63,852 bases of DNA, filler included, from Welwitschia mirabilis (GCA_051453625.1; 8 parts of one record of this genome joined end to end with filler, not necessarily neighbours in it); one strand, 5' to 3'. Positions 1,343 through 30,616 are shown, numbered from the whole stretch's first letter. Numbers and translations are program-made. Notes: generated by a model from the letters alone, not told the origin.

Positions 1343-1359
1343 TTTTAGTACTATTGTTG
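1343..1359 (+). other. Left half of a tRNA-Asp-type primer binding site, split by the CACTA insertion
   Basis: ttttagtactattgttg reads as decayed TTTTGGCGCCGTTGCCG. The continuation ccaaggaaggctgtaaggagct is at 29404, matching the unsplit copies after 37720 and 43299. Confidence 0.75.
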
Positions 1360-1382
1360 TACTATAAGAAATATAGACTATA

Positions 1383-1780
1383 AAGGCCTTAAAAAAGGCC
1401 TTAAATGCTTTTAAGGTATTTCTTTGTAAAATGCCTTAAATAGCCTTACCTTATGCTTTTAAGGAGTTTCTAAGTTGTTTAAATAAAACTGCCTCAAAAT
1501 ATTTATTAAGGCATTTCTAAGGTGTTTAAATAAAAATGCTTGAAAATCCCTTTTAAAATGTTTTAGAAAGAAATGCCTCAAAACCCCATTTGAGGTGTTT
1601 ATCTAGAAAATCACCTCAAAAGAAATTTTGAGGCATTTATCTAGGAAAAATGCCTTTAAAGATATTTTGAGACATTTATCTAAAAAAATGCCTCAAATGC
1701 CTAAACACCTATTGAGGCATTTTTTGAAAGAAAAATTTCATTCTTTTAAGAATAAACATCCTAAGAGACCTTTTGAGTGT
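1383..1780. repeat. Left subterminal repeat array of the CACTA element
   Basis: Many direct and inverted copies of aaatgcct(t/c)aaa / ttt(a/g)aggcattt. Confidence 0.8.
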
Positions 1781-2764
1781 TTATTGGTACATGTTTCTGC
1801 AAAAAAATGTTTATCATTTCTCCCATGAAGGATCTTTTCTCTCACTATATTTAATGTAAATTTAATCTTAATTGGATACTTAAAGTTCATGTTTCTTTCT
1901 TATTTTTCTCCAAATTGGTTATACCTCTATGTAAAAAGAAGAACCACCTTATAAACATCCTATGCTTATTACTCTAGTAGAAACTTCAAAATCAACCATG
2001 CCTACTTTTAATTTATAGACCTCATTAAGAATAACTCCATTTGGAAATCTAAATAGAATAAAACATATCCTATCATTAATAGTGGTTTTCTTCCCATGAG
2101 TAGTGCACCTACTATTGTCATTAGCACCTAGCATAATAAATGGTAAAACTCAGAGAACATGGAGAAAATAAAATTTTTCTCTAGTTTATTATTTTTATAA
2201 GAAATAAATCATTTTTTGTTCTTAGCATTGTAAATTTTGTAAACATTAATATATGTTAAAGATGTATTTAATAGAAATAGAATAGATACTTAAAGAGTAG
2301 CTATAGAGACAGATGCTACATGATCTGAAGAAAAGCCTATACAAAGCACAAATTAAAGATTTAATGCTAAAAAACACATCTCATCTAAAATTCCAAATAA
2401 ACTAGTATTCATTCTACTAAGCCTCTTTCCAACACTCTTAATAATTTTTCTAGAATAGAACATCATAGCAGTGATTCCTCCTAATTGTTGGAAAATCATC
2501 AATGACACTAGTCTGAAGAAATATCTAGTTTCTTTACATTAGAAAAAGCATTCTACTAGTTTAAAGAAATGTTTAATTTATCTCACTGCATTTGATATAC
2601 TTTTACTTATCTTAAAATATCAAATCTTTTAGTTATTTAATACATAAAATCCCAAAGATGAAAATCCCAAGGAGTACAACACAAGATTGAAGATAGATCT
2701 CCTTCATCATGTTGGCCATATAGTAATGGAATGATTCCAATTTAAGTCTCTTAGTGTAGAACAA

Positions 2765-3864
2765 TGTTGTAGTATGTATTTATGCAACATTTACATCTTG
2801 AGTATAATCTTATTAGTTATAAATAATATGCACAAACACAACACACTAATATAGATGAGAGTAACCCGAATGTCATAATCCGTTGAAGTCTAAAGTATGG
2901 AAATAAAAGAGTTGCTTTTAAGATAAAAATATAGTAACCCTAACTTACATAAATAATTTGCAATGCATGGAAATCAAATAAAACACACTTATGCAAGACT
3001 AATCTAGGAAAGGAAATAGAAATACACCTAAGCTAACTAAGCACATCCTTGACAAAGGTTGCCCTCATAATCTATATCACAAAAGAAGCTTGTTACTAAA
3101 TCTCAAATAACATAAACTATGAGGGAGAAGATCATTCATACATCTGAACACAAAAGGAAAATAACTTATATTAAAAATGCACATCACATCTGTATTACAA
3201 AGAAGTTGTTCCTCAATAGAGGAAACGATGCCCAACACCAAGGAAATGTCTCTCTAAAATTATAGAATGGTTCTCCGGTCCTTTGATCTCCTGTCACGAG
3301 TATGTCAGGGACTGTCGAAGATGATTAGAAGTCGAGGATAAGACCTTTATTTATAGACTTAAAACAAGAAATGAAACTAATAAAAAGATGCGGGGATAAC
3401 CCTAACCGCCATGCCAAGAGAAGTCAAAATAAGTGGTGAAAGCTTAGGTAATCATTCAGTGCAAGCATTAGAAAACAGTGTCGTCCGTCTAGTCATCCGA
3501 ATGATATATGAAACGATGCTGACTGATAGTTAGATCCTCATCTTCTGCCAGTTCGACTGCCTATGAGACCTGTCATCGACCAGTTGGCATGATCGTCTAT
3601 TCTGTCATCTGGATGATTATGTGGACGATGGTCTTTAATGAATCTTCAATTAATCTAGTTACCTTGTTTTTTGCAGGAAATTATCATCCAAAATATTTTT
3701 AATTAATATTTGCAAAGAATGCTTTTAATTTATCTGGAAATCATATGTTTCCATCCTTTTCATGCTGGTTCTCCATTATCATGAGAATTAAGCATTTATT
3801 TATCAATTACCTGCAAAATAACTCAGAATATCCTATCAAATACATGTAAGTTGGCAGTACAACA
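2765..3864 (-). repeat. 3' LTR
   Basis: TGTTG...ACAACA, followed by taggctcccactt (polypurine tract on the minus strand). Confidence 0.85.
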
Positions 3865-5440
3865 TAGGCTCCCACTTTGCCTTATTAGTCCCTCACAAAA
3901 CTAGTTGGTTGACTACATTTTCGAGCTAACGTTTTAAATAATAAAACAACTCAGATATCTATAGGAATTATCTAAAAAATACTGGAAGAATATTCCTAAA
4001 GATAAATTAAATTTATAAAAAATTCAAAGTTCTAAACATAAATACCTGTGAAGCATTAAGAATTAGTCGTCTGGTACAGTTATCCAGACAATGGAGTTAA
4101 TGATAGAATTATATAAAGGATTTTCAAAATTGGAACCTGTCACAGAAATCAATTTCCTCTGTTAATTAATTAATCATGATAAACAGCTCTCCACTGTGAT
4201 AAACAGTCAAATACAAAGATTTGTCCAAAGTGAAATGCAATTCTTATTATTAAAATCAAAAGATAATCATATAAAAATTAGGCAAAAATAGTACACTATG
4301 CTAAAACGAAATGATATGTCTATATAATAATGAGAGCTTTTAGTACAAAACATGTAGAATGGGAGATACAAAATATAATGTAAACTTACTTCTCTTGTCT
4401 ATGCATCAGATCTACTACTTAACTCTCTGCTCGAAGGCATACAATAGAAAAGCATCAAAATACTGAAAATATGTCCTATCCCACCTAAAATATGCAATGC
4501 ATCTCAAATTGCCTAATCATAAGAAAAGAAATGAAGAAAACTTTTGATCATAATTGAATAATAAGAAAACTACTAAATGATTAAAGTCCTAAAAAGAAAT
4601 AAGAAAATGTAGAAATGACTTTGAAACAAGGGACTCAAAAATAGAAGAAAATCATAGTGAAAAAGGATATAAGTAACAAGAAGAAGATTGTTTACCTATC
4701 ATAAGTACTAACCTAGTAAATTCCCAAGAAAAACATTATAACATCACCTAAGTAAGTATGCATGACAAAATGTATTAACTCCATAAAGTTATTCAAAGAG
4801 GTATTGGTTATGGCGATATCCAAAATTTCAAATGTGTAGAACAATAAATGTCAAAATCAAAAGTTACTTAGAAATGAACTCACCTGCTTTCACCTCATAA
4901 ACTCATCCAAATATTTGAAAGTGAAATGATCAAGTAGGAATACTAAGAGTCTAGGAAATAAGCAATGCCTCTGATGATATCAAAAATACCACTAATCCCT
5001 AACCTCAAAGTTTTTATTTTTTTTCCATAATGAGGGGAGTGAAACCACTATCAGAGGAGTAAGGACTCGTGAAGCATGGATAACTGACCTCCTAATAGAG
5101 TTCCCATAACTACCAACACTACCAAAGGTTCCTTTTGAAAATATTTATGCTAGTGCAGTAGAATATCATGGTGACCATGTATTTTTCTTTAAAGCACAAA
5201 ATACAATAACTCATGGTCATTATTTTTCTTTCTCTCTCTTTTTTAAAATTCCCACATGATCACATACTTAAAAAAGAAGAAGATGAATAAGTGAGATAAA
5301 AGACAGAAAAAAACACTCCCAAACAACCCAAGATTTTAACNNNNNNNNNNNNNNNNNNNNNNNNNNNNNNNNNNNNNNNNNNNNNNNNNNNNNNNNNNNN
5401 NNNNNNNNNNNNNNNNNNNNNNNNNNNNNNNNNNNNNNNN

Positions 5441-6429
5441 AACCCGAAGGTCAGAATTCATTAAAGGCTCAAAATATGGAAATAAGAGAGTTGCTTTCAA
5501 GAGATAAAGACTATAACCTAACCTATGGAAGTAACTTAGAATGCATGAAAATGAAATAAAACACACTTGTAAAAGGATAATCTAGGAAAAGGAAATAAAA
5601 TATACCTAGACTATCCAAGCACAACCTTAACAAAGGTTATCCTTATAACCTATATTATAAGAAAAAAATATCACTAGATCTCAAGCAACATAAGCTATAA
5701 GGAACAAGATCATTCACACATTGAAGCACAAANNNNNNNNNNNNNNNNNNNNNNNNNNNNNNNNNNGTTTTACAAAGTAGTCATATCTCAATGAAGGAAA
5801 TGTTGCTAACCACTAAGGAAACATCTCTTTAAAACTATAGGATGGTTCTCCAAATCTTCGATCTTCTATCATGAGAATGTCGGGTACAAACAAAGACAAA
5901 GAGGAGTCAAGGAGGAGACCTCTATTTATTGACTCAAAACATGAAATAGTATAGACATAAAGATGTGGGTAAACCCTAATAGCCACATAGCAAGGAATCA
6001 GAACAGAAGCGGTAAAAGTTAGGTGAACACTCAGTGTGGGTATTACAACAGTGTCATTTGACTAGTCATCTAAATGATAAAGGAGATGATGCCACCTCAT
6101 GATCAAATCCACATTGGCTGCCAGTAAGACCTTAGTCAACATTTAGTAGATACTATAATCCATCTTGTCATCTAAATAATGAGGTTGATGATGGCCTTTA
6201 ATAAATTTTCAATTTGTGCATTATCCTTATTATTTACAAGAAGTCATTATCAGAAATACCGATTATTCATATTTGCTCAGAATACTTGTAATTTATCATG
6301 GATATTGCATATTTCCATTCTTTTTATCCTAGCTCTCCATTATCATGAAAACTAGGCATTTACCTATCTATTTACCTATAAAACAACTCAGAATACCCTA
6401 TCAAATATATGTAAGTTGGAAGCATAACA
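5441..6429 (-). repeat. LTR (left end lost in a gap)
   Basis: Colinear with 13869-14955. Ends ATAACA and is followed by tagccccccactt (PPT on the minus strand). Confidence 0.85.
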
Positions 6430-9400
6430 TAGCCCCCCACTTAGCCTTATAAGTCCCTAAAAAAACTAGGCATTAAACCACTTGTGAGCTAACTTATTAA
6501 ACAATAAAAACAACTAGAATACCTAAAAAAATTATTTTGAAAAGATTTGCAAAAAATTTTGTAAATAGAACTAAATTTTTAAAAAATTAAAAATACTGAA
6601 TAGAACACCTATGAAGCATAAGAAGTTTGTCATCTGAGTCATCGTCCAGATGATGAAGGGGATGATAGGCTCACAAAAGGTTCTTAAAAACTAGAACCTA
6701 TAATAAAAATTGATTTTCTTAGATAATTAGTTAGTCATAATAAATAGCCCTCCACTAAGATAAACAATCAAATATAAAATATTTTCCCAAGTATAGTCAA
6801 ATCCTCATCATAAAAATTGAAAGAGGATCATATAAAAATCAGGAAGAAATAGTACACCATTCTGAAAGAAATGATATATTTATATAATGAAGAGATTTTT
6901 TAGTATAAAAAAGTTGTAAAAGGGAAGATACAAAATGCAAAATCACTCCTCTTGTCTATGCAGGATGAACTATGATTCGATAACTAGCTCAAGAGTAGGG
7001 GGAGAAGAAGGAGAATGTTCAGGATCTATGGGGAGATAGATATCAAGAGATGCTATAATAGACCTAACTGTCTTATCATCTTAGATATGTACTAACTCTA
7101 GAATATCTACAATTACATTCTACTAGATAGAGATAATATGTTAACACATGTCCACCATCTAATACTCTATGTGTTGTACTCTCTTCTCGATGGATAGAAT
7201 CCTCTACACAACTATCTACTCAAAGGTCTAGATCATTTGATCAAGTGCCTAAATACCAATGTCCACAAAACCTCTAATGGTCTTGGTAGTCTTAACTAGA
7301 AGGGCCTAGATCTTCTCTAATAAAGCTCCAACTGTGGATCTCTGTACCTAAGATGTCTTTACCTCTTTTGGTACCTATATGTCTATATCCTATAAATAGC
7401 ATGCAGAAGTCTGAATATGTGAGGTACACTACTTACTTATGGGCTTTGGTGTTCCAAATTATTTGAAAAAAGCTAAGAGGAGGAATGGATAACTAAGTGT
7501 CTATAGATGTAGTGCCTCAATTAGAGCCCTCAGTATCCTCCAAATAAAGGTAGGTAAGTCCATCTGCTTCCCCTAATGAAAAGATGCTAGAATCTATAGG
7601 TGTGCCATCATAGTGTAACTATAATAAAATATGGAATAATATTATGATTAGTTCTCTGTGCAAAACTCTATATGTGGGGATAAGCTATGTAACATGTGCT
7701 CCTTATTGATCAGTGATTAAATTAGTTGAAATATCTAAGATCGTACCATAGGCTCGACACCCTTCTATCCCACCAGATGAATGAATATGCATGCTTTAAA
7801 GTCCTATAAGATTTATGATTACTACAATGTGGGGTGGGAGGATAACTATCTCATGGTTTCAAATGTAAGAAATGATCATATCCTAGAGCTAACCACGAGC
7901 ATCTTGTCACCTCTCTATATGCATAGTATCATAAAACTCTCTTATCTTAGAAGTATAATATAAACTATGCACATTTGTGATTCATCTAAGACATAATATT
8001 TTCAATCTCTGATCAACCTCTATCTCTATGAGGCTCATGAAATCTCCAAAATGTCTCTCGACATGAATTCTAGCTATTTNNNNNNNNNNNNNNNNNNNNN
8101 NNNNNNNNNNNNNNNNNNNNNNNNNNNNNNNNNNNNNNNNNNNNNNNNNNNNNNNNNNNNNNNNNNNNNNNNNNNNNNNNNNNNNNNNNNNNNNNNNNNN
8201 NNNNNNNNNNNNNNNNNNNNNNNNNNNNNNNNNNNNNNNNNNNNNNNNNNNNNNNNNNNNNNNNNNNNNNNNNNNNNNNNNNNNNNNNNNNNNNNNNNNN
8301 NNNNNNNAAATTAGCAAAAATATTGACAATATGTCCTTGTCCCTCTAAAAGATGTAATGCATTCTAAATTACCTAAATTGAGAAAGAAATGGAGAAAAAT
8401 GAGAAAAGTACAAAAGCTATGTATGTAGTGGGCATACATGTAGTGAAAATTTAAAGTACTTAAATAAAAAATCTAATCTAGTAAAGTCATATAGCATATT
8501 AAAGTGACTAATTTTTCAAAAAGATCTACTACAATTCAACCTACTGTTTGTGAGAAGATGAGTGCGAAAGGTAAAAACCTAGAAATATGTTATAATATGC
8601 AAAAGTAATCATAACTCAAAAAATATGCTATGAAATTCAAATCTATAAGTCCCAAAATACAGAGTGCCAAAAATTAAACAATATATATGAAAATTACATG
8701 TTGAAAGGCTGAAAAATAGGAGGAGGGAGAAACATATCTCATTTTTGCAAATTTGAAGAGATATCGCAATTTGGCAATGAAATCAGTTGGACAAGTCCTA
8801 AAATTCTAGTACTAGCTAGAGGAGTCACCATCTATCAAATAAATGAAGGAAAATAACGAGAAAATAAGTGAAAATAAGGAAAAAGGGTAGACTACAGTTT
8901 TATTGCACTATCGTCCGGTTGCATCATTCGGATGACTGCCATAGGATGAATCTAAAAAAAGATTAGACCATCATCCATCACAACATCATCTGGATGATTA
9001 GGTAGATGACAGGGCATCAAAAAGATTTTCAAAAAAAAATGTAAGCCATGAAAATTAGGCTAAGATAGGATCATTTAAGTGATAGTTCTGAAAAGAAAAA
9101 AAAAACAAAAAATAGAAAATCACACAAAAAAATATGAAAAATTAGGAAAACCAAAGGAAAAAGATTAAACACACATAAAAGAAAAAACTATAACTAAAGA
9201 AAATAGACTATCTAGGTTAAAAACTTGTAATAAAGACTACATGAATGTGCCTGAATAGAAAATGAAAGCATGACAGACGTAGGACTCAAGTACCTATAAG
9301 AGAATGCATAAAGATTATGGAAAAGATGTTCTTTTATAAGTTTTTCTGAAAAATGCATTTTTAGAAAAATGTTTTATTATGATAAAATAGCAAGAAAACT

Positions 9401-10289
9401 ACTAAATGATTAAGGCCCTAAGAAAAAAGAAGAAAATGTGAAAATGACTTTAAAATCCTAAACTAAAAAACTAAAGAAATACAGAGTGAAAATAGACATA
9501 AAAAATAAGGAAAAGATTATTTATCTATCCTAAATACTAACCTAGCAAGCTCCAAAGGAAAACATCATAACATCATCTAAGTAGATAAGCCTGACAAAAT
9601 GTATTAACTTTATAAGTTTTATATGAAAAGGTAGTGGTTATGGCAATAGTCAAGGCTTCAAGTATGTAGAATAATAAATGTCAAAACCAAAAGTTATCTA
9701 GAAATGAAATCACCTATTTCCATCCCACAAACTCACCCAAATCTCCAAAAGTAAAATGATCAAGTGGAAATACTAAGAGTCTAGGAAATAAGAAATGCCT
9801 CTGATGATACTAGAAGCATCACTAATCCCTAACCTCAAATTTTTTATTTCTTGTACCATGATGAGGGGATTGAAACCACTCTCAAGTAAGTAAGGACCTA
9901 TGAAGCATGGCAAACTAACCCCTCAGTGGAGTTCTTACAACTACCAACACTGCCAAAGGTTTCTTTTTGAAATATTTACCCTAGTGTGGTAGGACATCAT
10001 GGTGACTATGTATTTCTCTTTAAAGCCCAAAATACAAGAACTTATAATCATTNNNNNNNNNNNNNNNNNNNNNNNNNNNNNNNNNNNNNNNNNNNNNNNN
10101 NNNNNNNNNNNNNNNNNNNNNNNNNNNNNNNNNNNNNNNNNNNNNNNNNNNNGTCCTCAGTGGCAATGCAAACCTAATTATAATTATTATAATCATCAAG
10201 GAAATAGTGAAAATAATAACTTGAATCCTATTAAGAATCTAATTATAAAAATGTAAAAGATAGCAATATTTTTTGGTTATCTCATTTAG

Positions 10290-13224
10290 TTTTTGGAAGT
10301 CTATACATATATATCATTTATTACCATTTTTAGGTACTACTATCAAGGGGCTAACACACTCATTATTAGTAATGGAGCAAATGATTTCAATATCTATAAG
10401 TCTTATGATTTCATATTTTAGGACTAGAGTGAGTCTATTGGAGTTACCTCTAGTTTTAGCATTTTCTTTGAGGTAGATTTTATGTTTCATAATGGAAGTG
10501 GATATGGCTATCAAATCATTATAGGACCAAGTAAATGCATGAACCTTTGATTCAAAAGAGAGATAAGACTAGATTCTTATTAAGAGGAAAGATTTTTGTT
10601 GATAATCAATGGTTTGTTCAGATCTCTATTCAAAAAATGTATTTCAATCCACTGTCTAAGGGTTTTAGGTTCAGGTTTAGGTTTAGACTTTTGGTTTTAG
10701 GAAAATTCTCAAAAAAATTAATTATTTTCTTAGCTTATCATTTGGACATTGGTAGTGGATGACTGCCCTCAAAATAAGAAATCTTAAGCTTACTAATTTC
10801 TTACACTTTAGCACAGTTTATAGACTTAGGTTCACTACTCCCCAAATTAGAAAACTTAAGTGGTAGATGGTTATATTTAAGTTGATCGTTAAGCACATAA
10901 AGGTAGTCTACTTTTGATTTATTGTTAAACAAGATTAACTCATGAAACATGGACTGTCTTTCCTCAAGTGGACGGTGCTGTAAAAATAGGATTGGATTAA
11001 TTTCCTCCTCTAAACTTAAATCATTACCTAAATTATTTTTTGCTGCATCAAACACTATTATCAAAAATTGTTTATTTTCAAAATGGGTTCATCAATCTGG
11101 TTCTTTTATCTATACTGCAATGAGCTATTACATAGAAAGCTCTACCTAGAAGTAAGTGATATTCACCATGAAGCTCAACTTCTAAAACAACTACATCGAT
11201 GGATTAGAAGAATTCCTCTATCTGACTGACTAAGTTCTTGATCACACCTAACCATTTCTTTATAAACGTGTCTGTTAACCCCAAAATAATGCATGCGGTT
11301 TCTGTTCTTTCTTCCAAATCAAGATGTTGACAAATGTGCAATGACATAATGTTGATACTAGCTTCAATATCTGTCAAGGATTTCTTTATTATATGGTTTC
11401 CATTTAAAGTGACACTCACAGTTACCACATCTGGATCTTTAAACTTTGGACATTTTTGGCATACCATGTTGCTAATAGATTAAGCTAGGAAAACTTTACT
11501 AGGTATGTTCATTTTTATTTCCTTTTTATTAAGTATTTCTATAGCTTAGAGTATCTTGGATTTTCTTGTAAAATTTTCTAATAAGATAAGTTAATGCTTA
11601 TATTTTGCATTAAGGCTTCAAATAATTATCAAAAATGGGTTTGTGTTAAGCCTATTAATCCATGAGGTAGTAGGTTTCTTCTGTGAAGGATCTTTCTTTT
11701 TATTGCTAAGTGAGAAAGAAAAGGAATTGTTTTCTAGTATTTATATGTCCTCTTCCTCATCATTCTTGTTACTTTGTGAAGTTGAAGTCTTATGAATAGA
11801 ATGAGTTGTGTTACTTCAACTTCTTATCATCACCTTACAATTTTTTTTTACTTCATTAGGGTTTGGTAAAGGTTGAGTGGTAAGAGACCCTAGTGGTATT
11901 TGGTTGACAAGCATGGTTTATTGTACAATACTTACAACATTTAATATGTTGGTGTTTATCTTTTCTTAGGTTTTTCTCAACTCCTCAATAGAATTCTTAA
12001 GAGGATCACTATGGTTTTGAGAGTTGGAAGAGCTTGCCAAGTTGTTTAAGTTGTTGGATTAAAAGTTTAAGTGCTTAAATCTATTTCTCAAAGGTTGGGA
12101 GCTAGGATGATGTGTTTGAAAATTTCTAGAATTTGATTATTCACTCATCCTATGTTGAAAGTTGTGATTTTGGACTTATCTTTGGTTGTGATTTTGAATG
12201 TAGTTCAAAGGTATTTGGTTAAAGGCATAAAATTCCTCATAGATGTTCTTTTTATAGGTAGCAAGCAAGGGATAATATTCTATAATATGATAGCTATCTT
12301 TACACAAATCACATGTTAAAACTACAACTTCACTCTTTTCAGTTGCTACTTTAGCATTAAGAATCATAGGGACATATTTCTCTAAGGTAGAAGTGAAATC
12401 CTTAATGATACTAGTTGGTTTATTTTCGGTTTTGGTCTCATTCTTCTCATGTTTTACCTCTTTTATATGCTTAATGATTTGGTCTACTGTTTAATTTTCT
12501 CTAGATGAGGGTTTATATCAATTTTATCTTACTTCCACCAAATCCTCTAATACCTTTTAAGCATCTTCTAGGATTTGGTTTAATAAGTTACCTCTACATA
12601 AAAAATTTATAGGTTACTTGATATGAATGTTTAACCCACTATAAAAATAGTCAACTAACTCTACCTATAACAAGGCATCTATAGGATTTGAATGTAAAGT
12701 AACAAAGAATTTCTTATATATAGAGGCATAATCTTTGTTAGGCATTTGCTAGAAGTTGGTGACTTTTTTCTTACATTTTTAGATAGTGGTTTCATTCATG
12801 AATCTCTTAATGAAGGATTATTAAACTTGGCTTTAGGATTTAAGAATTTTATGAGAAATCATTCTAAACTAATGTTTTGCTTTATCTCTCAAAGTAATAG
12901 AAAAGATAACCATGTAGGTTCTATTATTTATTCATTTCTTATCATTTCCAAAAGTAAGGACAAGAGGTTCTATATTGGCGATGTGTTGTAAAGGATCCTT
13001 ATCAGGTTCTCTACTAAAGATAGAATAAGTGTTTAAGTTATAGAATTCTACATCATCACTGGAAGGTAAATCAAAAGGAGTTTGGATTTCACGTTTTTTA
13101 TTTGCTATAATATCTCTAAGAGTAACATAGGTACTAGTTTGAGAAGGATTAGAAGTAGGGGTTCTAATGACAAGAGGTGGATTTAGAGAGATAAGTTATT
13201 TAAGCTTTTGGTTAAGGTTGACAT
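10290..13224 (-). pseudogene. Decayed gag-protease-RT(N-terminus) polyprotein
   Basis: ORF fragments CPKFKDP..KSLTDIEASINIMS (Athila protease DxGASxN motif), CDLC..H knuckle relic, and EIIRLIDIEIICSITNNECVSPLIVVPKNG (RT start, cf. KLLDAGIIYPISDSxWVSPVxVVPKKGG). Many stops and frameshifts. Confidence 0.85.
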
Positions 13225-13868
13225 GATAGCAAAATCAGACTCTACAGAAATAAAAGTGGAAATTACAAGAAATTGAAAATCTTGCATACCTTCATTTTTT
13301 TACCTATTTCTATTTCAAGATTTATCAAACCTTATCTAATATTTTTAGTAATCAATAGCTGCTCTCTATACTATTTTTCTTTTTTACCAAATTTAATCAG
13401 TCATGCTCGATCTTGGATCTTTGAAAGTATTATTACTATCATTGTCCAGACGATATTTTGAATGACAAAAATACATAAACCCAAGAAAAGAAAAAGTAAA
13501 AAATAGAAATGAAAAACTGACTCTTAATAGGAAAACTTAGAAGATAGACTATCTTTTACCTGAGTCATCTAAACAAATAAGGAAATGATGGAACTAACTT
13601 GAAAAAAATCTAAAACAAAAATGCATAGCATAGAGGCTATCATTGCCACTCATCATTTAGATGATATAGTAGATGATGAACTTTTATTTCAAAATATAAA
13701 AAAGGACTTTGATTTGAAAAATAGAAAACTAACTATACAAAAATAGGAAACTATGCTACTATAGGTATTGTTACACCACTATTGTAGTAAGAATCCAAAC
13801 TAAAACACTTAATAAAGCAATGATAACTCTTGAAATCTAAGAAGCCTTTCCTGGAAATGATACTAAGA

Positions 13869-14955
13869 TGTTACGGTGTGTATTTACATAATTTATTTTT
13901 CCTAAGTAGAATCATATTAATCATAAATAACATGCATAAATACAACACACTAAAATAGATGGGAGTAACCCAAATGTCATAATCCGTCAATAGCCCAAAA
14001 TATGGAAATAAGAGAGTTTCTTTAAAGAGAGAAAAACTATAGCCTAATCTATAAAAATAACTTATAATGCATTAAAATGAAATAAAACATACTTGTGCAA
14101 GGCTAATCTAGGAAAAGAAAATAATAATGCACCTAAACTATTTAAGCACAACCTTGAAAAGGTTGCCCTCATAACCTCTATCACAAAATAAACTGTCATC
14201 GAATCTCAAGCAACATAAGCTTTGAGGGAGAATATCATTCATACATTAAAGCATAAAAATGAATGTTTTATATTAGAAATCATATTACATTTATGTTACA
14301 ATGTAGCCGCACCTCAATGGAGGAAATGCTATCCAACACCAAGGAAACATTTCTCTAAAACTATAGGATGGTTCTCTAGTCCTTCAATCTCTTGTCATAA
14401 GAATATCAGATGCAAACAAAGACAAGGAGGAGTCAAGGAAGATACCTCTATTTATTAACTCAAAACATAAAATGGTACATATAGAAAGATGCAGGTAAAT
14501 TCTAATGGCCGCGTAAAAAGAAAACAGAATACAAGTGGTGAAAGTTAGGTGAACATTTAATGTGGGCATTATAACAGGGTCATTTATATGATCATCTAGC
14601 TAATAAAGGAGATGATGTTACCTCATGATCAAATCTGCATTGGATACTAGTTAGTTCTTAGTTATCATCCAGTTAGCATAGTCATCCATCCTATCATCCA
14701 GACGATGAGGTGGACAATGTCCTTAAATAAATCTTTAATTAGTGTATCAGCCTTATTATTTGTAGGAAGTTATAATTATAAATATAGATTATTCATATTT
14801 TCTTAAAATGCTTGTAATTTATCATGGAAATTGCATATTTTCATCCTTTTTATCCTAGCTCTCCATTATCATGAAAACTAAGCATTTACTTGTCTATTTA
14901 CCTACAAAATAACTCAAAAAAAACTATCAAATATATGTAAGTTGGTAGCACAACA
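13869..14955 (-). repeat. 5' LTR
   Basis: TGTTA...ACAACA, adjacent to the reverse-complement PBS gcctttcctggaaatgatactaaga. Confidence 0.85.
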
Positions 14956-15729
14956 AATAATCATGACACAAGGAAGTACACACTACCATATAACTATAAT
15001 TTGTAGGAATACCAAATTACAGATTAAGTCCACTTAACATTCTTTGAATATGTAGATCAAATAAACCTAGTTCTTATGTATCAAGATGTACACAAGCATG
15101 AATAAGTTCAATATTCTCTTTACATGATAATATTTTAGATGAATTCAAAAAAATAGAAGGGTTATAGTATATTCCATCTTTAAAGGCCCTCGTTACTCTT
15201 AAATCTAGTACCTTTAAAGGCACTAGAGGACAAACTTGATAGCATAATAACTTTATTAACTTTTAAAATATTTTTGAAAAAGAAGGTGTCCATCAATAAG
15301 AGACTCTTTAAGGATTAGCAAGTTGTTTTTATTAATTATTTAGGGCTTCCTTTATCATCTTTCTCTCTTGTAAATATAAGCATTAGAGCCAATGCAAATA
15401 GAAGTAGTGGAGGCTTCCATGGTAAATACCCTTTGGAGGTGAGCATAAAGAAAAAGAATGAAAAAACATATGATGGAACTATTATTGTTGTTACTTATGG
15501 TATTTCTATCTAGATTATTATTTTAAAATTTCTCTACTTTGTTTGACCATGGAGTTAATAAATCATGATAAACAACATTGTTTAAATCTTTACAATGACA
15601 AGAATTAAATAAAATAAATGCAGTTTCCTAAACTTCTCTAGAATAAAATCAAGCAAGAGTAGTTTACTTATTTCTAGAGGACAAATTAGCTAGAAACCCT
15701 ATTTTCCTAGTCATACTTTCACTGCTTAA

Positions 15730-17655
15730 ATGTTTAAGACAATTAAGTCCATTGATGTGTCTTAAAATGATAAAGGATGAGATAACCCTTTTTACAAATA
15801 TAATACATATTAATTATTTGAAAATCATATAAAAACTTATATTAAGAAGATACATATGTATCACCACAAAAAAAGGGAAATGAGATAAAAAAGTAAATTA
15901 CCTATTAAATGAGAGGCACTGCAATAGAAGATGGACTTTTTAGGAAATAAGATTATTGTTAACTTCAAACTAATTTTGTACATTTGTCCATTAGCATCTG
16001 TTGTATTCTTCTTAATATAATAATTTATCAGTATTTAAATGAAAAAGTTTCTAAGACTTTGATTATAAAAAACTACTAAAGAATTGAAATAGGATAAAAC
16101 ATGAAACAAAACTTTGTTTACAAGTTGTTCAAACTATTAAATATTTTCAAAACATGCTTAGTATAATTTTCATTTTAATTGATTCATTTGTTATTAGCTA
16201 TACTATTAATTATATGATTCATTTGCATTCATATCTTAATGTTGGTATTACTCAAGCTTAGAGAAAATGTGCACTTTTTGTAAGATATCACAAAACAAAC
16301 ATACTTATGGGATGCAAAAAATAAAATTATAAATATATCCTTTAAAAGATTGATTTTTATTATATTGAATAGTTCCTAATGCTTAGTGATCAAGTTCAGT
16401 ATTAGAATCCATGATACTCTTGCTCTTGTAAAATTTAGTATCATTTAAAGAAAGAAATATAATGTCAGAGAAATCGTGGTGTAAAAACAACTCTTAAATT
16501 TTCAATTAGACATCCTTGTCATAAATCCAAAACACCCATGTTATAAAACCTTGTAGGATTCTCAACTAATTGGTCAACTCATATGAATGGGTAAAAAGGC
16601 ATTCATGATNNNNNNNNNNNNNNNNNNNNNNNNNNNNNNNNNNNNNNNNNNNNNNNNNNNNNNNNNNNNNNNNNNNNNNNNNNNNNNNNNNNNNNNNNNN
16701 NNNNNNNNNNNNNNNNNNNNNNNNNNNNNNNNNNNNNNNNNNNNNNNNNNNNNNNNNNNNNNNNNNNNNNNNNNNNNNTATATGTTTAAGACAATCAAGT
16801 TCATTAATTAGGCTTGAAATGATAAAGGTTGAGATAACCATTTCTACAAATATAATACAGCTTACTTGTTTGAATATCCTCTAAATAACTTATACTAAGC
16901 AGATATGTATGTTAACCAAAAAAATAGGAAATGAGATGAAAATCAAATTATAAGAGGCACTGTAATAGAAGATGGACTTTCAAGACATAAAATTATTATC
17001 AACTTCAAACAAATTATTTGCATCTATCCATTGGCATATGTTATATGTTGCTCAATATAATAATTTATTAGTATTTAAATGAAAAGTTTTTTAAGACGTT
17101 GGTTGTAATGAACTACTATAGAATAAAAATAGGATAAAACTTCAAAAAAATTATGTTTATAAGCTATTTAAACTATTAAATCTTTTTAAAACATGCTTAG
17201 GATAACTCTCATTTCATTTGATTCATTTGTTATTAGTAGATTACTAATTATATGATTCATATGCATTTGCATTTTGATGTTGGTATTGCTTAAGCTTACA
17301 GAAAATGTGCACTCTTTGCAAGATATCAGAAATAAATATACTTGTGAAATGTAGAAAATAAAATTACAAACATATCCTCCAAAAGCTTAATTTTTATTAT
17401 TTTGAATAGTTTCTAATGCTTGGTGATCAAGTTCAGTATCAAAATATATGGTACTCTTGTTCTTGTAAAATTTAGTAGCCTTTAAAGAAAGAAATATAAT
17501 GTCAGAGNNNNNNNNNNTATGGTGTTAAAATAACTCTTAAATTTTCAATCAAATATCCTTGCCATAAATTCAAAACAACAAAGCTATAAAATTTTGTGGG
17601 ATTCTCTATTGATTGGTCAATCCCATATGGATGGGTAAAAAAGACACTAATGATG
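15730..17655 (+). repeat. Diverged direct duplication of ~0.88 kb (15730-16609 and 16779-17655) inside the CACTA element
   Basis: The two segments align end to end by eye with many transitions. They are separated by an N gap. Confidence 0.85.
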
Positions 17656-19169
17656 ATATATATAATTTGATAATCACATATTTACAAGAGTTGTTTTATA
17701 AGTTCTCTTTGTAGAGTATAATACATCTTAAATGCACATTAAATGCTAAGATTATCCAAGTAATACTCTATATTTTCATGTACACTATTTAGCTATTTAT
17801 GTAATAACCTTATGTATTCTTCATGGTTCTTGAACTCCAAATTTAGACTACAAGTATCATGACTATACCTTTTATGCTGAAAGAATTTCAAGAAATAATA
17901 AGAATTATTTTAGAAAATATTTCAATATATATAAGCAGAAGCATAGAGTAGAAACAATTTTATAAGTAATATCATCCTCAACCTTCTCTGTTAATGAACC
18001 TAATACGTCCTTCAGATTCTTGAAATCAAAGAAATGTCAATCATTATACATAGTGTTTATTTAGAATAAGGTAAGTAAGGTTCTAGATCATGCCTACTGT
18101 TTAACATATTAACTTATTTAGATACATCAAAACACAAAATAAGATAAGGATCACATTCTTATGGGTATGCGTTTAATAAAACACAGAATCAATTAGTTAA
18201 ATAAATTATGCAAGCACCTTTGATTTGAATTTTTAAACACATGTTCAGGTTTTACTATTTGGTCTTCATAACATCTCTTGAAGATGCAATTAGCATAATG
18301 TTTTCATAGATTAAATAAATAATTAAGTCTTACAACTCCTTAGAAAAGTACTTGTAGAGGATGGAAGGTCATGTACTTTTTGAAGCATTAAAAATTAAAC
18401 AATAAAAAACTAAACATTAATTTTGGATAATATGGATAGTGGATTAAATACAGATATTTGAGTAATAGGTAAATAATACAACTTGGATATAGCTATACCC
18501 ATGCTACTATCACAGGTAGTAAATAATTTAAAGGATATAGTTAGAATAATTTATGGATCTGATATGAGAGCAAAATTAAGATTACATAAAAGTAGAGTCC
18601 ATAGATCTTTGAGCCATAGTAGATAACAAACTAAATTATGCTATTAAATGATACTATGGTTCATAACCCCTCTACCATGATAGTGCCTAATAATCAATAT
18701 TATAGCCAGTACATTTAGAAAATGTACTTTAAAAGATCATTTAAAACATCATGTTTTACCATTTCAACCATTTCTTTTGCAAGTTGTATGCCTGCAATTT
18801 TATATCTGCTTGTGTTATACTTCATCTTAATGATAGTATTTTATACCTATATAAGAATAACCATATACAAAATATCTTATGAAAGTCCCATATAGTACAA
18901 ACATTCAAAAGAAATTAAGAACCAAAAGACCAATCTAGATGTACATGAAGGAACTTATGTCTTACCTTCAAGATTGAAGAACTTCACTTTGATAAATTTA
19001 TGAGAAATAGGCTTTGAATAGACTTTAAGCATGTGAGTGATTTTTAAATAATCAATCTATGACTTGAACTCTACATTCTCCATGTCACCGACATATAGAA
19101 ATTATGGAAAAATATTATGTGGGCAATGGAGATATGAGAATGTTAGAATCGAATGATTTCATAAAGATG

Positions 19170-20567
19170 TGTTGCGATGCTAATTTATGGGAATTTAATG
19201 TTGTATTTTGAGTACTTTTGTAGGACATTCATATAAGTTTTGATACAATACTAATGGCTATGAAGATGTGATAGGATGATTAGCGAAACATGTGATATCT
19301 AGCATTTTTGACAATTTCTCAGGCTTAGTCTGATACTGCAGAATTAGAAGAAGGACTGTATGATGCAAAAAATAATTTACCTTGGAGAAAAGAATAAAAA
19401 AAGATTGTCATCCCAACAGTCATCCCCATGACACCTAGGATGACTAGACTTCTAATATGGACAGAAGCGTGCAGTGCTGATAGTGGCACATGATTCACAT
19501 GTTGATAGGGCATTGTCTGCATAGTCATCCAAACAATAAATAGGATGACAGCACTAAGACTATGCACAGGTAATCCATGGGGCTGATGGTAGTACATGGC
19601 ACACTGCCTAAGCTATTAAGGTGGCATCGTCCCCCTTGTCGTGTGGATGACATACTCGACAATAATTATTTTACACTGTAGAAATAAATTCTATTGTAAA
19701 TGGGATCAGATAACCCATGTGGGTCATTAGGGTTTCTGTTTCCTACATTTAGGCTTTTTTTCCAAATCCCTCTTTTGAAAATCTATAAATATTCTTCTCC
19801 TCCTTCATTTCCCTTCCATATTTTGTATCCAATACTTGTGATGGAAGCTTGAAGGGCGAGAGATCCATTCCATGCTGCAATAAAGGAGTCTTCCTGGTGT
19901 CAAGTTGGGTTCCTCTCATTGAGATGCTACTGTTTTGATGTTGTAAGTGGATGTTATTCTGATTTGATTAGATTAATACAATTTCTTCCTTCATCTCATT
20001 ATTGTGCATATTCCTTATGATTTAAGTTGATCTTAGTTAGTGATAAGCTTTGATTTATTTAGATCATAAGGAGAATATTTCTTAAGGTTGACCTTGTTTA
20101 GTAGAATAGATTTGCATTATTTATTTCTTTCTTTTCATACTGCATTTAAAGTCTTACTTTGGTAAATCTCATAGCTTATATTGATTAAGAACTAGTCAAT
20201 ACTCTTCTTCTTTGATATAAGTTATAGAGAAGTAGTCTTTGTGATAGAAAGACTGAGATCTAAGTAGGACCTATTAGATCTCCCATTTCTATCCCATTTC
20301 CATTACATCTGCATTCCATATCCATTCACTTGCATTCCATTTCTATTTAAGCATTGCATTTACTTTAATTATTTCCTTTGAATTTTTGTAAATATAAAAG
20401 AATTAAAATACATTAGCAAAATCAATTCTCTAACTCTAAGCCTAGTGTCTTCATTGGATTATGACATTTGGATGAACTACCATCTATACTAAAGTGTGTT
20501 TTCTACATTCTATATGATCTACAAGTTATCTAAGGGTTTTTAGATTGCATAAATTCACATCACAACA
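19170..20567 (+). mobile_element. Solo LTR (family C)
   Basis: TGTTGCGATG...CACAACA with a perfect AGATG target-site duplication on both sides. No PBS or PPT flanks. Confidence 0.92.
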
Positions 20568-23500
20568 AGATGAATGAATAAATATAGGCTAAAGAAAAAT
20601 TAATAGTAGTATGCTTTAAAATATGAACCACATTTATTCAAAATTATAAAACAAAATCTTTAGGTTGGTTATAGTAGCATATAATATCTAAAATAATGTG
20701 ATAATACAATACTAGTAAAACTTTTTATTCTACTACCTCTGATGGATAAACTAATGCCATTTATTCTTACTTGATGATTAGAAATGAATATTACCTAGAG
20801 AAACTTGAGAATGTAAAAAATTCATCATCATCATCTATAAAAACTGCATGTAAATCATAAAAAATAAGATTTAGAGTTCTTTCAACAAATTAATGGTACT
20901 AGTAGATTCAGCAAAATTCTTACCTTTTTGTTTCTTTAATCACTTCATGTCTTTATGATTAACTTTTGTAGTGTTTCACCAAGAACTTAAAGGTTGTAAA
21001 TCCTTTATACTAGATTACAGTAAAACACTACATGAATCAAATGAGATTAAGGGTAGGAAAAGATCTAATAAGGAATAGGTAAAATCTAGATCATCATAAG
21101 ATAAGCCTATTGTAAGTAGGTAATAGGCAAGCAATTATAGATACTTGTCACATGAAATTACAGATAAGGAATGTGTGTAGATAGAATAAAATCCTCCTTA
21201 TTAAATTCACATCAAAACCTTGGCTTCATAAACATTGATTCTCATAAATAAAAATGCAATGTGGAAAACTACTCTAGTTCATATTTCTATTACATAATAA
21301 AGGACTCAATGTTGTTGTCTTAATGTTTAGTTAGAGAAAGCATGTCTAAAATAAGGTTAAGATATTTAGGCATAATGTTGTTAATTCTATATTAAAAGAA
21401 GCCATACTAAAAGGAAGAACATGAAGTCAGTGTTAATTACTCTCGACTAGAAAAAATTCACAAAGGAAATGCAAGGATTTTGAAGTAGTTTACCTCTATT
21501 AAATTCTAATTTATCCAAAGTGAATAAGATACTAAAGAAGTAGGCTAGAAGTAGATATTTCTCTAGTCAATCTTTTTTTAGTTATCCTTCCATTGCTTGT
21601 GTGCTGCCTTCAATTGTTCACTTGTCCTATTTGGCTACCTTCCTGTTTTAACATTGCACTTCCCTTGAATTCTATTCCTACATTTAAGTGTTAGTCTCTC
21701 TTCCTCTCCTAGTCTCAAGTTGATGGTCTTAGTATTTCTATAATTTACTCAGCAATTGTTTAATATATAGTTAGAGAGCCTTCATGTCAAGTTAATAAGT
21801 GAGCATTAAAAGGTAGATTCTTCTCAGCTCTCAAATGGTTGCTAAGAGACATAATAATTCATAAAATTATGCTTCTTATTAAAGACTAGGCTTTTGTCTT
21901 CTAATTTTCTTTAAACAAGACAATAATATACAATTTTAGATTTCCATGGACATGGCCAGACATTGTTATATCTAATCAATAGGGAATAAATAGCCATCCA
22001 AGTTTAACTTTTTGAGGATATCTTCAAATAGAAATTCAATATGTTTTCTCAGAGGGTAGATTTCAATCTTCACTTTTAAAGAGTTTTTTTAATGATAATA
22101 TGCTTGGTTTTCATTTAAGAGGAGATACAAAGGTTTAAAGCTAGATTGCTAAATTCTTCCTATTTTTGTTAGTCCCTCTCAAACTTGTAGATAGATTACA
22201 GTATACATTACGACCCCATGTGAGACAAAATTTATGCTCTACCAAATGTACATGAGATAATACATGAATATTTTTCTAGGAAAACATATAATTTTTATTA
22301 ATGTTTTTTAAATTTACATAAGGAGGGTTGAAAAATAATTGGCTTGTTTAAACAGTAGCACCAAGTTAATATTTGATGTAAAATTTGTCAAATATAGAGA
22401 GGTGCTACAATGGCGAAGGTTGAATAAGTGTTTGTCAGGGAGTGAAGGTAGATATTTATGGAAGTGCTACATTAAGAATTTTGGAGAAAAAAGAACATGC
22501 ATCATTTTATATTATGGATGACTTCAATACCAATATGGTCATTAAAAGTTCTCCTTGTGTATTACCTTCATCCAAATTAACACCCACAATGTAGAGTCAG
22601 TGTTTGCAAAAGATATAAAATTATTAATACTTGTAATATATGCTAAGTTACAGTCTCTTATAATCATAATAGGTATAAAACTATAGATCCTTTGATTTAT
22701 AATTAAAGTTGTAAGCATTACATATATCTTCCTTAATGGTTAATGCCATAAAAGTTGAGAGAGATTATGCTATGATGGTAGCCAAAAGAAATGGAATGTT
22801 AGAATATCCATCGATGGCTAAATGCTCTCACCCTTAAAGCATAAAACATAAAGACTATAGATCTTATTATAATAAGATACAAAGGGTTTATCAAAGTCAT
22901 TAATCTCCCTATTGACTTCATAAAATTAGGTTTTGGATTTCTTTCTTTCCTTTTTTATTTTTGAATTGCCTTCAATCTTCCTGGATTAACATGAGATTGG
23001 CCCTTAGTAAAACCTTAAATTGGCTTATTTGTGTTAAATTTAATATTTGGCACATCAAGAAAAGGGAATTTCACTCACCCTTTACCAACTACATCTAGTT
23101 ATCCATCTTGTTTGAGGTCGAATCTGATCTAGGGCCTCTGAGATCACATAGATGTAGAGCCCTAATAATGCAATCTTTGGATGATAAAGTGAGAGGACTA
23201 TAGTGCAAAAACAAGAGTAGTAAATGGATGGATGTTTATCCACTAAGCAATGCAATTGTGATCAATACTAGAAATTAGTTGAAGGTTATTTCCAATGGCA
23301 AGTACAAAAGTGCATGGTAGAGGATTACTACAATTAAAGATGATAATAGGATGTTTGTCTACTACAATCCATCTTTGGAGACATTGGTATGGCCTATAAG
23401 TGTGCTCCTATAATTCAATTCTGAGATTAATGGTGATGGTGATAGATCTTAAGTTATCTAAACTATTTATTTGGGAAGTACATGAATGTTTATGCCAAAT

Positions 23501-27344: not shown

Positions 27345-27715
27345 GATAACTGGTCAATGGCATACAAAAATTGGAAACTGCTAATCATGATTTATCTACT
27401 CAATTTCATTTTGCATCAAGAATGCAAATTGTATGGTTAGACATTCATTGATATTAAATCCTTAAGTAACCATTATCTTGAGATCCATAAGAAAAAGTGC
27501 TAATCATGGTTTATCTACTCAATTTCATTTTGTACCAAGAATGCAAGTTGTATTATCAAATATTCACTAATCTTAAATCCTTAAGAAATCATTATCATAA
27601 GGTCCATAGGAAGGAAGTTAAATGGCCTTTCAAAGGATATTCATGTAAACATTACACTAGTTCATTTACTAATAAGAAAGGTATTAAAAGGCAGATATAC
27701 CATTTACTCTTTTTG
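27345..27715 (+). pseudogene. Decayed C2H2 zinc-finger array (three fingers; 119-bp tandem duplication)
   Basis: CKLYG*TFIDIKSLSNHYLEIH, CKLYYQIFTNLKSLRNHYHKVH and CKHYTSSFTNKKGIKRQ fit C-x2-C-x3-F-x5-L-x2-H-x4-H, with the second Cys as Tyr. Repeat units start at 27379 and 27498. Confidence 0.65.
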
Positions 27716-27799
27716 TAATCATCCTTAACTAGTCAAATAAGCCTTTTCACATGCCAAATTTAATAGAAAAATATAGAGTACTTATCATAAATGTCCTTG

Positions 27800-28730
27800 A
27801 TAATAGACTTTCATGCTTCCAATTGCTCCTTTGTCCAAAATCCTAAAGTGGATGGGTACATACAAAATAGATAAGATGTTCTTCTTCAATAAAATGGATA
27901 GAGGAAGAGTATCAAGCCATATTTAGATTTGAGAGAATACTCCTTAGTAATATCAAAGATTCCAATAGCTTTACTAATAAGAAGGTATCCATGATTGGTT
28001 CTCTATAAGTAATACAAGACAACATGAGGTTGTAGAACATTTCCATAAGATCTAATTCTCGTCAATGGCATCAACTCAATTCTATAAAATCATCATTAAT
28101 CTCATTTAGCTTCTATTCTATATATTCTAAAAAATGAATTACTAGAATTCATAAGATATTACTTATGAGAGATTCTAAAGGAGCCCATTTAGTAAGGGTT
28201 GAAGATAGTATTATGGTTATTTTCATCATTCATCTAAATCCACAGATTATAACCCTGATCCTGTTATATTGTGTTATGATGTAAAGACATTTTATAGTTC
28301 TGATCCTATTATGTTTGGCAAATCTGGATGGCACAAAAGAATGAAACCTTTATTTGTAAACTAGATGATGACTCTCTCTTTTATAATAAACATGTAGATT
28401 ATGAAAACATCAAACATTTCAGGAGTAGAATGATTGAGTTTATTTACCTCTACATCTATAGTAATCACAATGAGGATTTAGTGGTTGTAGAATGTTTTCC
28501 TTAATAATGAAGAGGTTAACAATATTTAAAGAATTAATCTAGAGTGTAGATACCAGAAGCACATTCCTTTAATATTGTAATGATCACACTCTTTATAAAC
28601 CTTAAGAAAGTCATGAATATTATCACGAAAGGCTCTGTGATGATTTACAGGGTAGCCATATTCATTGAAGGTGTGGAACTAGAAGGCTGTATCCACTCTT
28701 ATGCGCTTCTTGTAGGCTTCTATAAATACA
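27800..28730 (-). pseudogene. MS1/MMD1-family PHD-finger protein pseudogene (N-terminal part)
   Basis: Minus-strand translation gives FHTFNEYGYPVNHHRAFRDNIHDFL..YNIKGMCFW, LFIIKENILQPLNPHCDYYRCR, a GT..AG intron at ~28447-28378, SHHLVYK*RFHSFVP, and later GIFDITKEY..WLDTLPLSIL. These are colinear with recalled MMD1/MS1 motifs (FG..GFP...GAFRD.IR.FL; IVEE.V.....YCDHCRC.GWS.H.V.KR.YHFIIP; GSFGVT). Confidence 0.75.
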
Positions 28731-29149
28731 ATGATTTGTCTTTATTTGTGCCTAAATATACCTTTCATTAGATCTCTTCCTTACTCATCCATACAAAGGA
28801 AGCATCAAAGGTTAAACATTGATATCCTACATTACTATATTCTCCTAATTTCATTAAATTAAACTAAAACAACATAGTATCAGAGATGGAAGAAAACACT
28901 ATGCTACCTACAAAGATTTTATAACAACATTTTTCAAAAGAAAAAGGCCTAATAAGCTAGACTTCAGTAGGAACCTTAGGCATGCATCCATTGGATCTGC
29001 ACTGATTAACATCATGGACATGTAAAATGATAGCTTTAAAAGCCTCATTTTTCCATTACCTTTTCCCCCAAATGAACTTACAAAAAAACCATGTTATTAT
29101 GCAATTTTGTTTAGTACCTTCATTTAGTTTATTTCTTTAATAAATTTTA

Positions 29150-29390
29150 TATGCTCCTAAAAAGACTAAATCATTTTTTTCCTTAAAAAACTCAAATTAT
29201 TTAAGGTGTTTATTTGAATAAAATCCTTAAAATCTTTATTATAATTTACACCTAATAAGGCGTTCTTTTTATAAACACCTTAACAAAAATTTGAAAAAGG
29301 ACTTTTAAGGCCTTTGTTTAAAAAATGCCTTAAAAACATTTTATTAGATCATTTAAGGCATTTATTTTAATAAACATCTTAAAAGATTAT
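29150..29390. repeat. Right subterminal repeat array of the CACTA element
   Basis: Same aaatgccttaaa / ttaaggcattt / aaacaccttaa motifs as the left end. Confidence 0.75.
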
Positions 29391-29403
29391 ATTTCTAGTA
29401 GTT

Positions 29404-30517: not shown

Positions 30518-30616
30518 NNNNNNNNNNNNNNNNNNNNNNNNNNNNNNNNNNNNNNNNNNNTTAATTAATTAANNNNNNNNNNNNNNNNNNNNNNNNNNNN
30601 NNNNNNNNNNNNNNNN

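Follow-up and report, generated by a model that had tools for sequence, protein, structure and literature searches.

Among plant transposons with CACTA ends, the autonomous En/Spm element of maize combines such ends with clustered subterminal repeats in both orientations and with the TnpD and TnpA genes. Non-autonomous CACTA elements of soybean and morning glory, such as Tgm-Express and Tpn1, carry exon-intron pieces of several host genes and are recent, active and located in pigment genes. Here we describe an element at positions 1360-29403 of a 63,852-nucleotide stretch of the Welwitschia mirabilis assembly GCA_051453625.1 (hereafter, the window), which we regard as a fairly probable dead, non-autonomous member of a CACTA (En/Spm-type) family with captured host-gene fragments, similar to Pack-CACTAs. 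The element shares with En/Spm the type of ends, the subterminal repeats in both orientations and a presumed cut-and-paste mode of transposition, but no coding relic of TnpD or TnpA was found in it. Like the soybean and morning glory elements, it appears to be a non-autonomous CACTA transposon with exon-intron pieces of several host genes; unlike them, it is ancient, nested and silent.

The occurrence of gene-fragment-carrying CACTA elements in soybean and morning glory is mentioned in PMC6379663. Pack-CACTA or Pack-TYPE elements (Arabidopsis Pack-CACTA1a and the maize and rice elements identified with packFinder) have CACTA-type ends (PMC6379663, PMC8903248), as does the Welwitschia element. 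The element further resembles the packFinder class in yielding no transposase hit (here with Pfam profiles, not BLAST), in the matches of its interior to coding genes that stem from several host loci (PMC8903248), and in the low copy number that is reported for most CACTA Pack-TYPE clusters. Compared with these Pack-CACTAs, it is much longer, at 14.4 kb without and 28 kb with the nested elements, and no more than about 1-1.5 kb could be recognised as genic; moreover, its 3-bp duplication is not recoverable, and it is heavily decayed and immobile. The rice Pack-MULEs, too, are non-autonomous DNA transposons that capture and shuffle fragments of host genes (PMC6379663, PMC8903248); they belong, however, to another superfamily with long terminal inverted repeats and a 9-bp duplication, neither of which is seen in the element.

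A single insertion into a long terminal repeat retrotransposon

Comparison of the window with itself yielded 68 matching pairs, among which the left flank of the element (589-1355) pairs with 36935-37733 and the right flank (29408-29912) with 37739-38265; in a second paralog, 29405-29621 pairs with 43315-43538, and the empty site lies at 43263-43538. In alignments, both flanks adjoin directly in these two paralogous copies of a long terminal repeat (LTR) retrotransposon (36935-37733/37739-38265 and 43263-43538), where the LTR end CAACA is followed by approximately 17 letters and then by AAGGAAGGC. Because the flanks are contiguous in two paralogs, the sequence from about 1360 to 29403 is one insertion located a few letters 3′ of the host LTR. 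The uninterrupted form is frequent in public DNA contigs, with joints from 20567 to 29409..29418 and 21-29 letters between. Thus, 1360-29403 is a single insertion into an LTR retrotransposon and its borders are real.

The six runs of N within the element (5341-5440, 5733-5766, 8080-8307, 10053-10152, 16610-16778 and 17508-17517), along with the very high copy number of the nested repeats, could suggest that scaffolding had joined the ends of different elements across assembly gaps. This is most improbable, given that the left and right flanks meet at one and the same point in the host retrotransposon, that matching pentamers flank the nested LTR complex across gaps, and that portions of the interior recur, with 0-3 differences, in contigs of two organism labels.

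Terminal inverted repeats and subterminal repeats

The two ends of the element (Table 1) agree at 13 of 16 letters, a score that is reached by just 2 of the 59,250 16-mers in the window, and at 14 of 19 letters over a longer span (left end, TACTATAAGAAATATAGAC; right end as reverse complement, AACTACTAGAAATATAATC). The left end starts with TACTA, the first letter of which departs from CACTA by a C>T change, and the right end reads TAGTT, which matches TAGTG in four of the five letters, the last one being changed by a transversion. Each end is identical at six of eight letters to CACTACAA, the end given for Arabidopsis CACTA1 and Pack-CACTAs (PMC8903248, PMC6379663).

The window contains 10 sites of the motif GCCTYAAA where 4.3 are expected, and three of 100 shuffles reached 10. 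All 10 sites, in both orientations, map to 1386-1697 or 29304-29359, and none is farther than approximately 340 bp from the left end or 100 bp from the right. A 38-bp unit is repeated in tandem at 1571-1697 (3.3 copies), and the two subterminal regions share an inverted match (1429-1469/29323-29363). When decay is tolerated, the motif density amounts to 29.9 per kb at the left end and 20 per kb at the right end, compared with 2.0 per kb in the interior. Decayed CACTA termini, short inverted repeats and subterminal repeats in both orientations, which are among the marks of CACTA (En/Spm) transposons, are all found here, and the ends of the element accordingly are a decayed CACTA-type inverted repeat with subterminal repeats. 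The empty-site paralogs, the inverted repeat and the clustered subterminal repeats together bear out the proposal of the first-pass annotation, which was made from the sequence itself, that 1360-29403 is a CACTA-ended element.

Table 1. Coordinates of the element, its flanks, host-gene fragments, repeats and nested insertions (positions in the window)
Feature	Position	Strand	Details
Left flank	589..1359	+	3′ part of an LTR, terminating in CAACA at 1343, followed by 16 bp of the host LTR retrotransposon
Left terminal inverted repeat	1360..1375	+	TACTATAAGAAATATA; decayed CACTA-type end; border set by empty-site paralogs
Left subterminal repeat region	1376..1760	+	7 of 10 GCCTYAAA sites; 38-bp tandem unit; hairpin pair 1558-1651
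Sugar (MFS) transporter fragment	2245..2559	-	Pfam profile positions 241-336 of 452
Nested LTR-retrotransposon complex	2765..14955	-	Three LTR copies; AACAA/AATAA flanks; assembly gaps inside
Receptor-like kinase ALE2 N-terminal domain fragment	15193..15351	+	Profile positions 71-120 of 120
Tandem duplication, ~0.9-1.05 kb	15727..17654	+	15727-16609 and 16779-17654, 81% alike; 169-N gap between
Cobalamin-independent methionine synthase, possible weak fragment	18376..18576	+	Residues 609-672 of 1u1h_A; PDB phmmer E 0.047
SLC13-type carrier, very weak resemblance, lead only	18666..18863	+	PDB phmmer E 0.47
Nested solo LTR	19170..20567	+	LTR family of the host retrotransposon; perfect AGATG duplication 19165-19169/20568-20572
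ACC-oxidase (2OG-Fe(II) oxygenase) fragment	23138..23425	+	Residues 177-274 of 5gj9_A
119-bp tandem repeat	27375..27612	+	2 copies, 84% alike; one C2H2-like motif in each
12-oxophytodienoate reductase (OPR) fragment	27739..28092	-	Two blocks; PDB phmmer 1vji_A (OPR1) E 4.5e-14
Right subterminal repeat region	29150..29387	-	GCCTTAAA sites at 29304, 29327, 29352
Right terminal inverted repeat	29388..29403	-	Reverse complement AACTACTAGAAATATA
Right flank	29404..29912	+	Internal region of the same host LTR retrotransposon; continues the left flank in paralogs

Fragments of host genes in the interior

The interior of the element was translated in six frames with read-through of stop codons (denoted X), and long frames and 108 short windows were compared with Pfam, and selected frames also with PDB sequences using phmmer, which proved the more sensitive of the two comparisons. 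The clearest piece on the plus strand derives from an ACC oxidase (PDB, E 3.3e-13; Pfam 2OG-FeII_Oxy, E 9.3e-8 in the long frame and 4.3e-9 in short windows), and the homology to the mRNA of an expressed parent gene extends to approximately 23522, as indicated by RNA reads at 23179-23522, the loose ends of which are GC-rich. The OPR piece consists of two blocks, 27937-28092 (residues 23-74 of 1vji_A) and 27739-27858 (residues 74-113), which abut in the protein and are split in the DNA by a 78-bp pyrimidine-rich insert; this insert looks like a retained short intron and thus points to genomic rather than cDNA capture. A fragment of the ALE2_N domain was detected with E 2e-6 in the long frame and 2.2e-7 in short windows. 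The sugar transporter fragment is less prominent (Pfam Sugar_tr, E 1.5e-4 and 21.3 bits, below the 22.3 cut-off, in the long frame; 5.8e-5 in short windows), and its frame had no match in PDB at E<=1. Beside this fragment, a second exon-like block can be discerned by eye at approximately 2062-2130. In the case of the possible methionine synthase fragment, the alignment retains the CY.H...II block. The remaining four frames of 20573-29403 yielded nothing in PDB at E<=1.

Each of these hits covers a domain in part, and the gene families concerned are unrelated; the pieces are located on both strands, are riddled with stop codons and represent at least four host genes; otherwise, no credible Pfam family was found in the interior of the element. 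Weak Pfam rows (IG_AIR9, 0.039; FlhC, 0.0077; CID, 0.035, and others) were attributed to chance given the 108 sequences scanned. A word-indexed protein search with the ACC-oxidase piece returned 41 candidates, none of them at E<=0.001, a method judged to be unsuited to short decayed pieces. Within 20573-29403, there are 27 open reading frames of at least 50 amino acids (aa), the longest stop-free frame being 106 aa; this frame (24562-24879) had no usable hit in the ESM Atlas and showed low protein-likeness (recognition 1003). The description of the interior as coding-like on both strands therefore holds for the approximately 1-1.5 kb of host-gene fragments and not elsewhere.

The first-pass annotation also suggested a multi-gene zinc-finger cargo, including an MS1-like gene, and, as one option, a divergent family that has CACTA ends, makes use of a non-canonical transposase and carries passenger genes of the zinc-finger or chromatin-binding type. 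A pattern scan detected no intact C2H2 motifs and no PHD cores. It returned two C2H2-like motifs, both decayed, at 27423 and 27542. These motifs lie within the 119-bp tandem repeat, the length of which is not a multiple of three; Pfam detected no families in 27250-27800 even at E<=10, and there was no zinc-finger or PHD match at E<=1 for the six frames of 20573-29403 in PDB, a collection in which zinc fingers abound. A plus-strand frame near 24.99 kb contains a Cys/His-rich stretch with no match. A zinc-finger or MS1-like cargo thus finds no support in these comparisons. A divergent family of this kind could be suggested by the two C2H2-like motifs, the Cys/His-rich stretch, the lack of a canonical transposase and the conservation of the interior among paralogs; it is nevertheless highly improbable, considering that no zinc-finger, PHD or MS1 match was found in Pfam or PDB, that the longest open reading frame is short and hardly protein-like, and that no RNA from this copy was detected (see below).

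Copies in the genome

The region 18000-30500 was compared, at 80% likeness, with public DNA runs (X1 and X5) and two RNA runs. At the right end of the element, 191 contigs of X1 and 159 of X5 match up to 29402 and are mutually unlike beyond that point (agreement 0.4), and approximately 200 further contigs have only 29352-29402 in common. A multitude of contigs that are alike up to 29402 and then diverge mark the terminus of a transposon from a large family, and the element belongs to such a family, whose termini in the genome number roughly 200. The summed depth reaches approximately 1,000-10,000 across the last 500 bp of the element.

The interior (20919-28841) has a summed depth of 20.8-86.2 compared with 3.2-8.2 for single listed contigs. 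At the listed variant sites, 2-18 contigs each carry the same other letter, and of the eight X1 pieces listed, all but one show a likeness of 79-85%. The depth, the shared variants and the paralogous pieces together indicate that the interior is a low-copy repeat rather than unique sequence; the claim that it is unique thus holds within the window, by self-comparison, but not in the genome. These data also bear on the origin of the element as a one-off composite, in which two small elements of the CACTA family bracketed genomic DNA and moved together once, so that the interior would have no family of its own. Such an acquisition step has been proposed for Pack-CACTAs (PMC6379663); moreover, the termini (~200 contigs) far outnumber the interior copies, and the lowest depth is observed in the ACC-oxidase bin (20.8 and 22.6). 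This scenario appears improbable, however, because the whole of 20919-28841 is present at 3-14 times the depth of a single contig, and the variants shared by 2-18 contigs per listed site imply that there are several copies of at least the greater part of the interior.

In the segment 23038-23691, a contig from a run labelled organism B shows 0 differences, and the best organism A run shows 3; this locus, insertion included, is common to both organism labels.

Transcripts that match the element

Among the RNA reads that match 18000-30500, none of 1095 and none of 318 in the two runs are at least 95% alike to the window, and hence there is no detectable transcript from this copy in the two libraries. 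The peak of RNA coverage at 23004-23837 (~65 and ~11 per strand) consists of reads that are less than 95% alike and have GC-rich loose ends, which agree with each other (0.95-1.0). These reads come from an expressed, diverged, GC-richer relative of the ACC-oxidase piece. Compared with the window, X13 reads have G for A at 154 places and C for T at 175, with the reverse at 59 and 51, an asymmetry indicating that the copy in the element is the decayed one. Smaller RNA peaks are found at 21336-22169, 24672-25088, 25923-26339 and 27591-28007, the last of which overlaps the OPR piece.

Two short blocks of the interior were observed separately. The 520-bp block 24539-25058 is present in 7-10 paralogous contigs that are approximately 84% alike. 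In each of the two runs, 5-8 diverged RNA reads per strand map to it, all sharing three differences (24868, 24917 and 24997); the block may be an exon of some family gene or a small repeat that is part of an expressed transcript. The 52-bp block 21727-21779 is matched by 36-42 oligo-dT RNA reads, in which both flanks are consistent (0.97-0.99) and unlike the window, and is a short segment shared with some abundant transcript.

Search for a transposase

In agreement with the first-pass annotation, no TnpD-type (Transposase_21, DUF4218) or TnpA domain was recognised by Pfam in the element, within the limited sensitivity of such scans. No transposase families were detected either in the long six-frame scans (E<=0.1) or in 102 short windows of the element (E<=1; 42 windows of one set and 60 of the 66 of the other, of which the remaining six were nested-LTR controls). 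Motif scans were treated as uninformative: a set of transposase motifs gave 44 hits compared with 32-57 in 20 shuffles, and a decay-aware scan gave 340 compared with a mean of 247 in 30 shuffles, from motifs of 5-8 residues, with none of the 10-15-residue motifs at 80%. Likenesses to TnpD blocks that were noticed by eye on both strands were rejected, not being collinear.

The leading alternative is a formerly autonomous CACTA element in which TnpD and TnpA, probably located at 23.4-27.7 kb, have decayed and become frameshifted beyond recognition, and which also took up host fragments. The own length of 14.4 kb fits autonomous CACTAs; in addition, the unexplained stretches of 4.3 kb and 2.6 kb are conserved in paralogs, diverged RNA reads fall on 24672-25088 and 25923-26339, and a plus-strand frame at 25.86-26.05 kb loosely resembles, by eye, the start of a TnpD domain, with one transposase motif matching there at two changes (25962-25965). 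The frame in question, however, was part of a 467-aa plus-strand translation (25488-26890) that gave no hits with phmmer against 1.84 billion representative proteins, and both the Pfam and the motif results run counter to this possibility. Furthermore, because host pieces of 50-100 aa are still detectable in the same copy, a plant-specific domain of 200 aa and of equal or younger age should usually be detectable as well. Taken together, these considerations make a formerly autonomous element unlikely, although it retains some weight, and a transposase gene is quite likely absent from this copy.

Several observations weigh against the interpretation of the element as a non-autonomous carrier of gene fragments. 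The first letter of both ends departs from CACTA, the change at the right end being a transversion, and a 3-bp target duplication is not recovered: the letters are TTG (1357-1359) on the left and CCA (29404-29406) on the right, with ATTGTCAAGG in the empty sites, and a common origin from TCA would need three transitions. As regards the transposase, the Pfam control missed the relics resembling a reverse transcriptase (RT), a YxDD box and a protease that are visible by eye in the nested retrotransposon (six long frames and six short windows), and the comparison relied on Pfam profiles, motif scans and the phmmer search of one frame. The stretch 15663-18470 was scanned in long frames only, and the PDB comparison covered, apart from 20573-29403, the plus frames of 14961-19169 and one of the six frames of 1360-2764. 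The OPR piece, which scores 4.5e-14 against a plant OPR, reaches just E 0.065 with Pfam Oxidored_FMN, and given this weakness, a frameshifted transposase relic could escape detection. Approximately 4.3 kb (23426-27738) and 2.6 kb (20573-23137) are unexplained, which is long enough for a transposase gene, and small peaks of diverged RNA reads fall on 24672-25088 (~5-8) and 25923-26339 (~2). Finally, the contigs are too short to link interior and termini in other copies.

The same two stretches (20573-23137 and 23426-27738) are approximately 80-85% conserved in several paralogs and are matched by diverged RNA reads at a low level. There is a very slight chance that they may encode a transposition protein that is unlike TnpD and TnpA or too diverged for profiles, in which case the family's long members would represent a new type of autonomous lineage with CACTA ends. 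The non-canonical transposase with chromatin-binding passengers that the first-pass annotation had put forward finds no support: there are no long open reading frames, no zinc-finger, PHD or MS1 matches in Pfam or PDB, and no RNA reads at least 95% alike in the two runs. Its other suggestion, a giant Pack-CACTA, fits the CACTA-type ends, the subterminal repeats, the absence of a transposase domain and the fragments of at least four unrelated host genes on both strands. The size is unexceptional once the nested elements are removed (14.4 kb).

Nested insertions and sequence context

Two nested insertions, proposed earlier on the basis of the sequence, are confirmed with their coordinates by target-site duplications at both (Table 1). 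After their removal, 14,445 bp of own sequence remain (1405+4209+8831, including 179 N), close to the ~14.5 kb originally claimed. The larger insertion contains LTR copies at 2765-3864, ~5441-6429 and 13868-14955, with identities of 73.7% and 77.5% and transition-to-transversion counts of 171:84 and 130:51; this arrangement reflects a tandem recombinant of the form LTR-internal-LTR-internal-LTR or else the presence of two elements. An internal block of this complex is repeated (4535-5221 matches 9363-10052), and its minus strand harbors frameshifted protease-like and RT relics with a YxDD-like box, recognised by eye in the translations and missed by Pfam. The internal region of this retrotransposon family is present in three copies in the window (11109-13403, 31248-33527 and 47600-49271) that are 73-81% alike.

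The nested solo LTR has a summed depth of approximately 53,000-63,000 in the DNA runs. Its family is found at least five times in the window (1-1343, 19170-20567, 34926-35710 on the minus strand, 36418-37733 and 41400-42466), with a summed depth of approximately 30,000-60,000 in the DNA runs, and not only hosts the CACTA element but also, in the form of the solo LTR, is a guest within it. The tandem pair at 15727-17654 was considered as a pair of LTRs and rejected, being devoid of TG..CA ends.

Only 1-30516 of the window is a single scaffold; past 30516, separate contigs are joined by spacers. There are seven such 100-bp spacers of the form N44-TTAATTAATTAA-N44 (30517-30616, 36318-36417, 40101-40200, 43850-43949, 48366-48465, 57274-57373 and 60813-60912), in which TTAATTAATTAA is a linker with stops in six frames, so that adjacency across spacers is meaningless. 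The window is strongly AT-rich, with a GC content of 0.16-0.35 per 2-kb window. The observed-to-expected ratio of CpG is 0.19 in the whole window, 0.08 in the element's own sequence and 0.00-0.10 inside the CACTA segments, and CWG is depleted as well (0.58-0.67). The depletion of CpG and CWG, together with the excess of transitions in repeat pairs, is consistent with long-term methylation-driven deamination.

Evolutionary history and implications

The element that emerges from this analysis is of a known kind (Pack-CACTA/Pack-TYPE), not a new carrier of zinc-finger genes. By analogy with En/Spm, it would have moved by cut-and-paste in trans, with a TnpA-like protein of an autonomous relative bound to the subterminal repeats and a TnpD-like transposase cutting at the ends. 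The gene pieces may have been acquired as genomic DNA between neighbouring elements or during repair, following the model outlined in PMC6379663, and then would have been copied along with the element. After insertion, the element presumably was methylated and decayed by C>T and G>A changes. The LTR-element complex and the solo LTR inserted into it subsequently.

For the annotation of this genome, the consequence is that annotators could mistake the decayed pieces of ACC oxidase, OPR, sugar transporter and receptor kinase for genes or pseudogenes, and that RNA reads of the parent genes cross-map onto such pieces at relaxed stringency. Decayed transposon genes, in turn, can escape profile searches and yet be found by pairwise comparison with a close relative. 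The locus illustrates clearly how a CACTA element can take up gene fragments in a very AT-rich, CpG-depleted plant genome, and a three-layer history of insertions is still readable: the host LTR element, then the CACTA element, and then the two LTR insertions.

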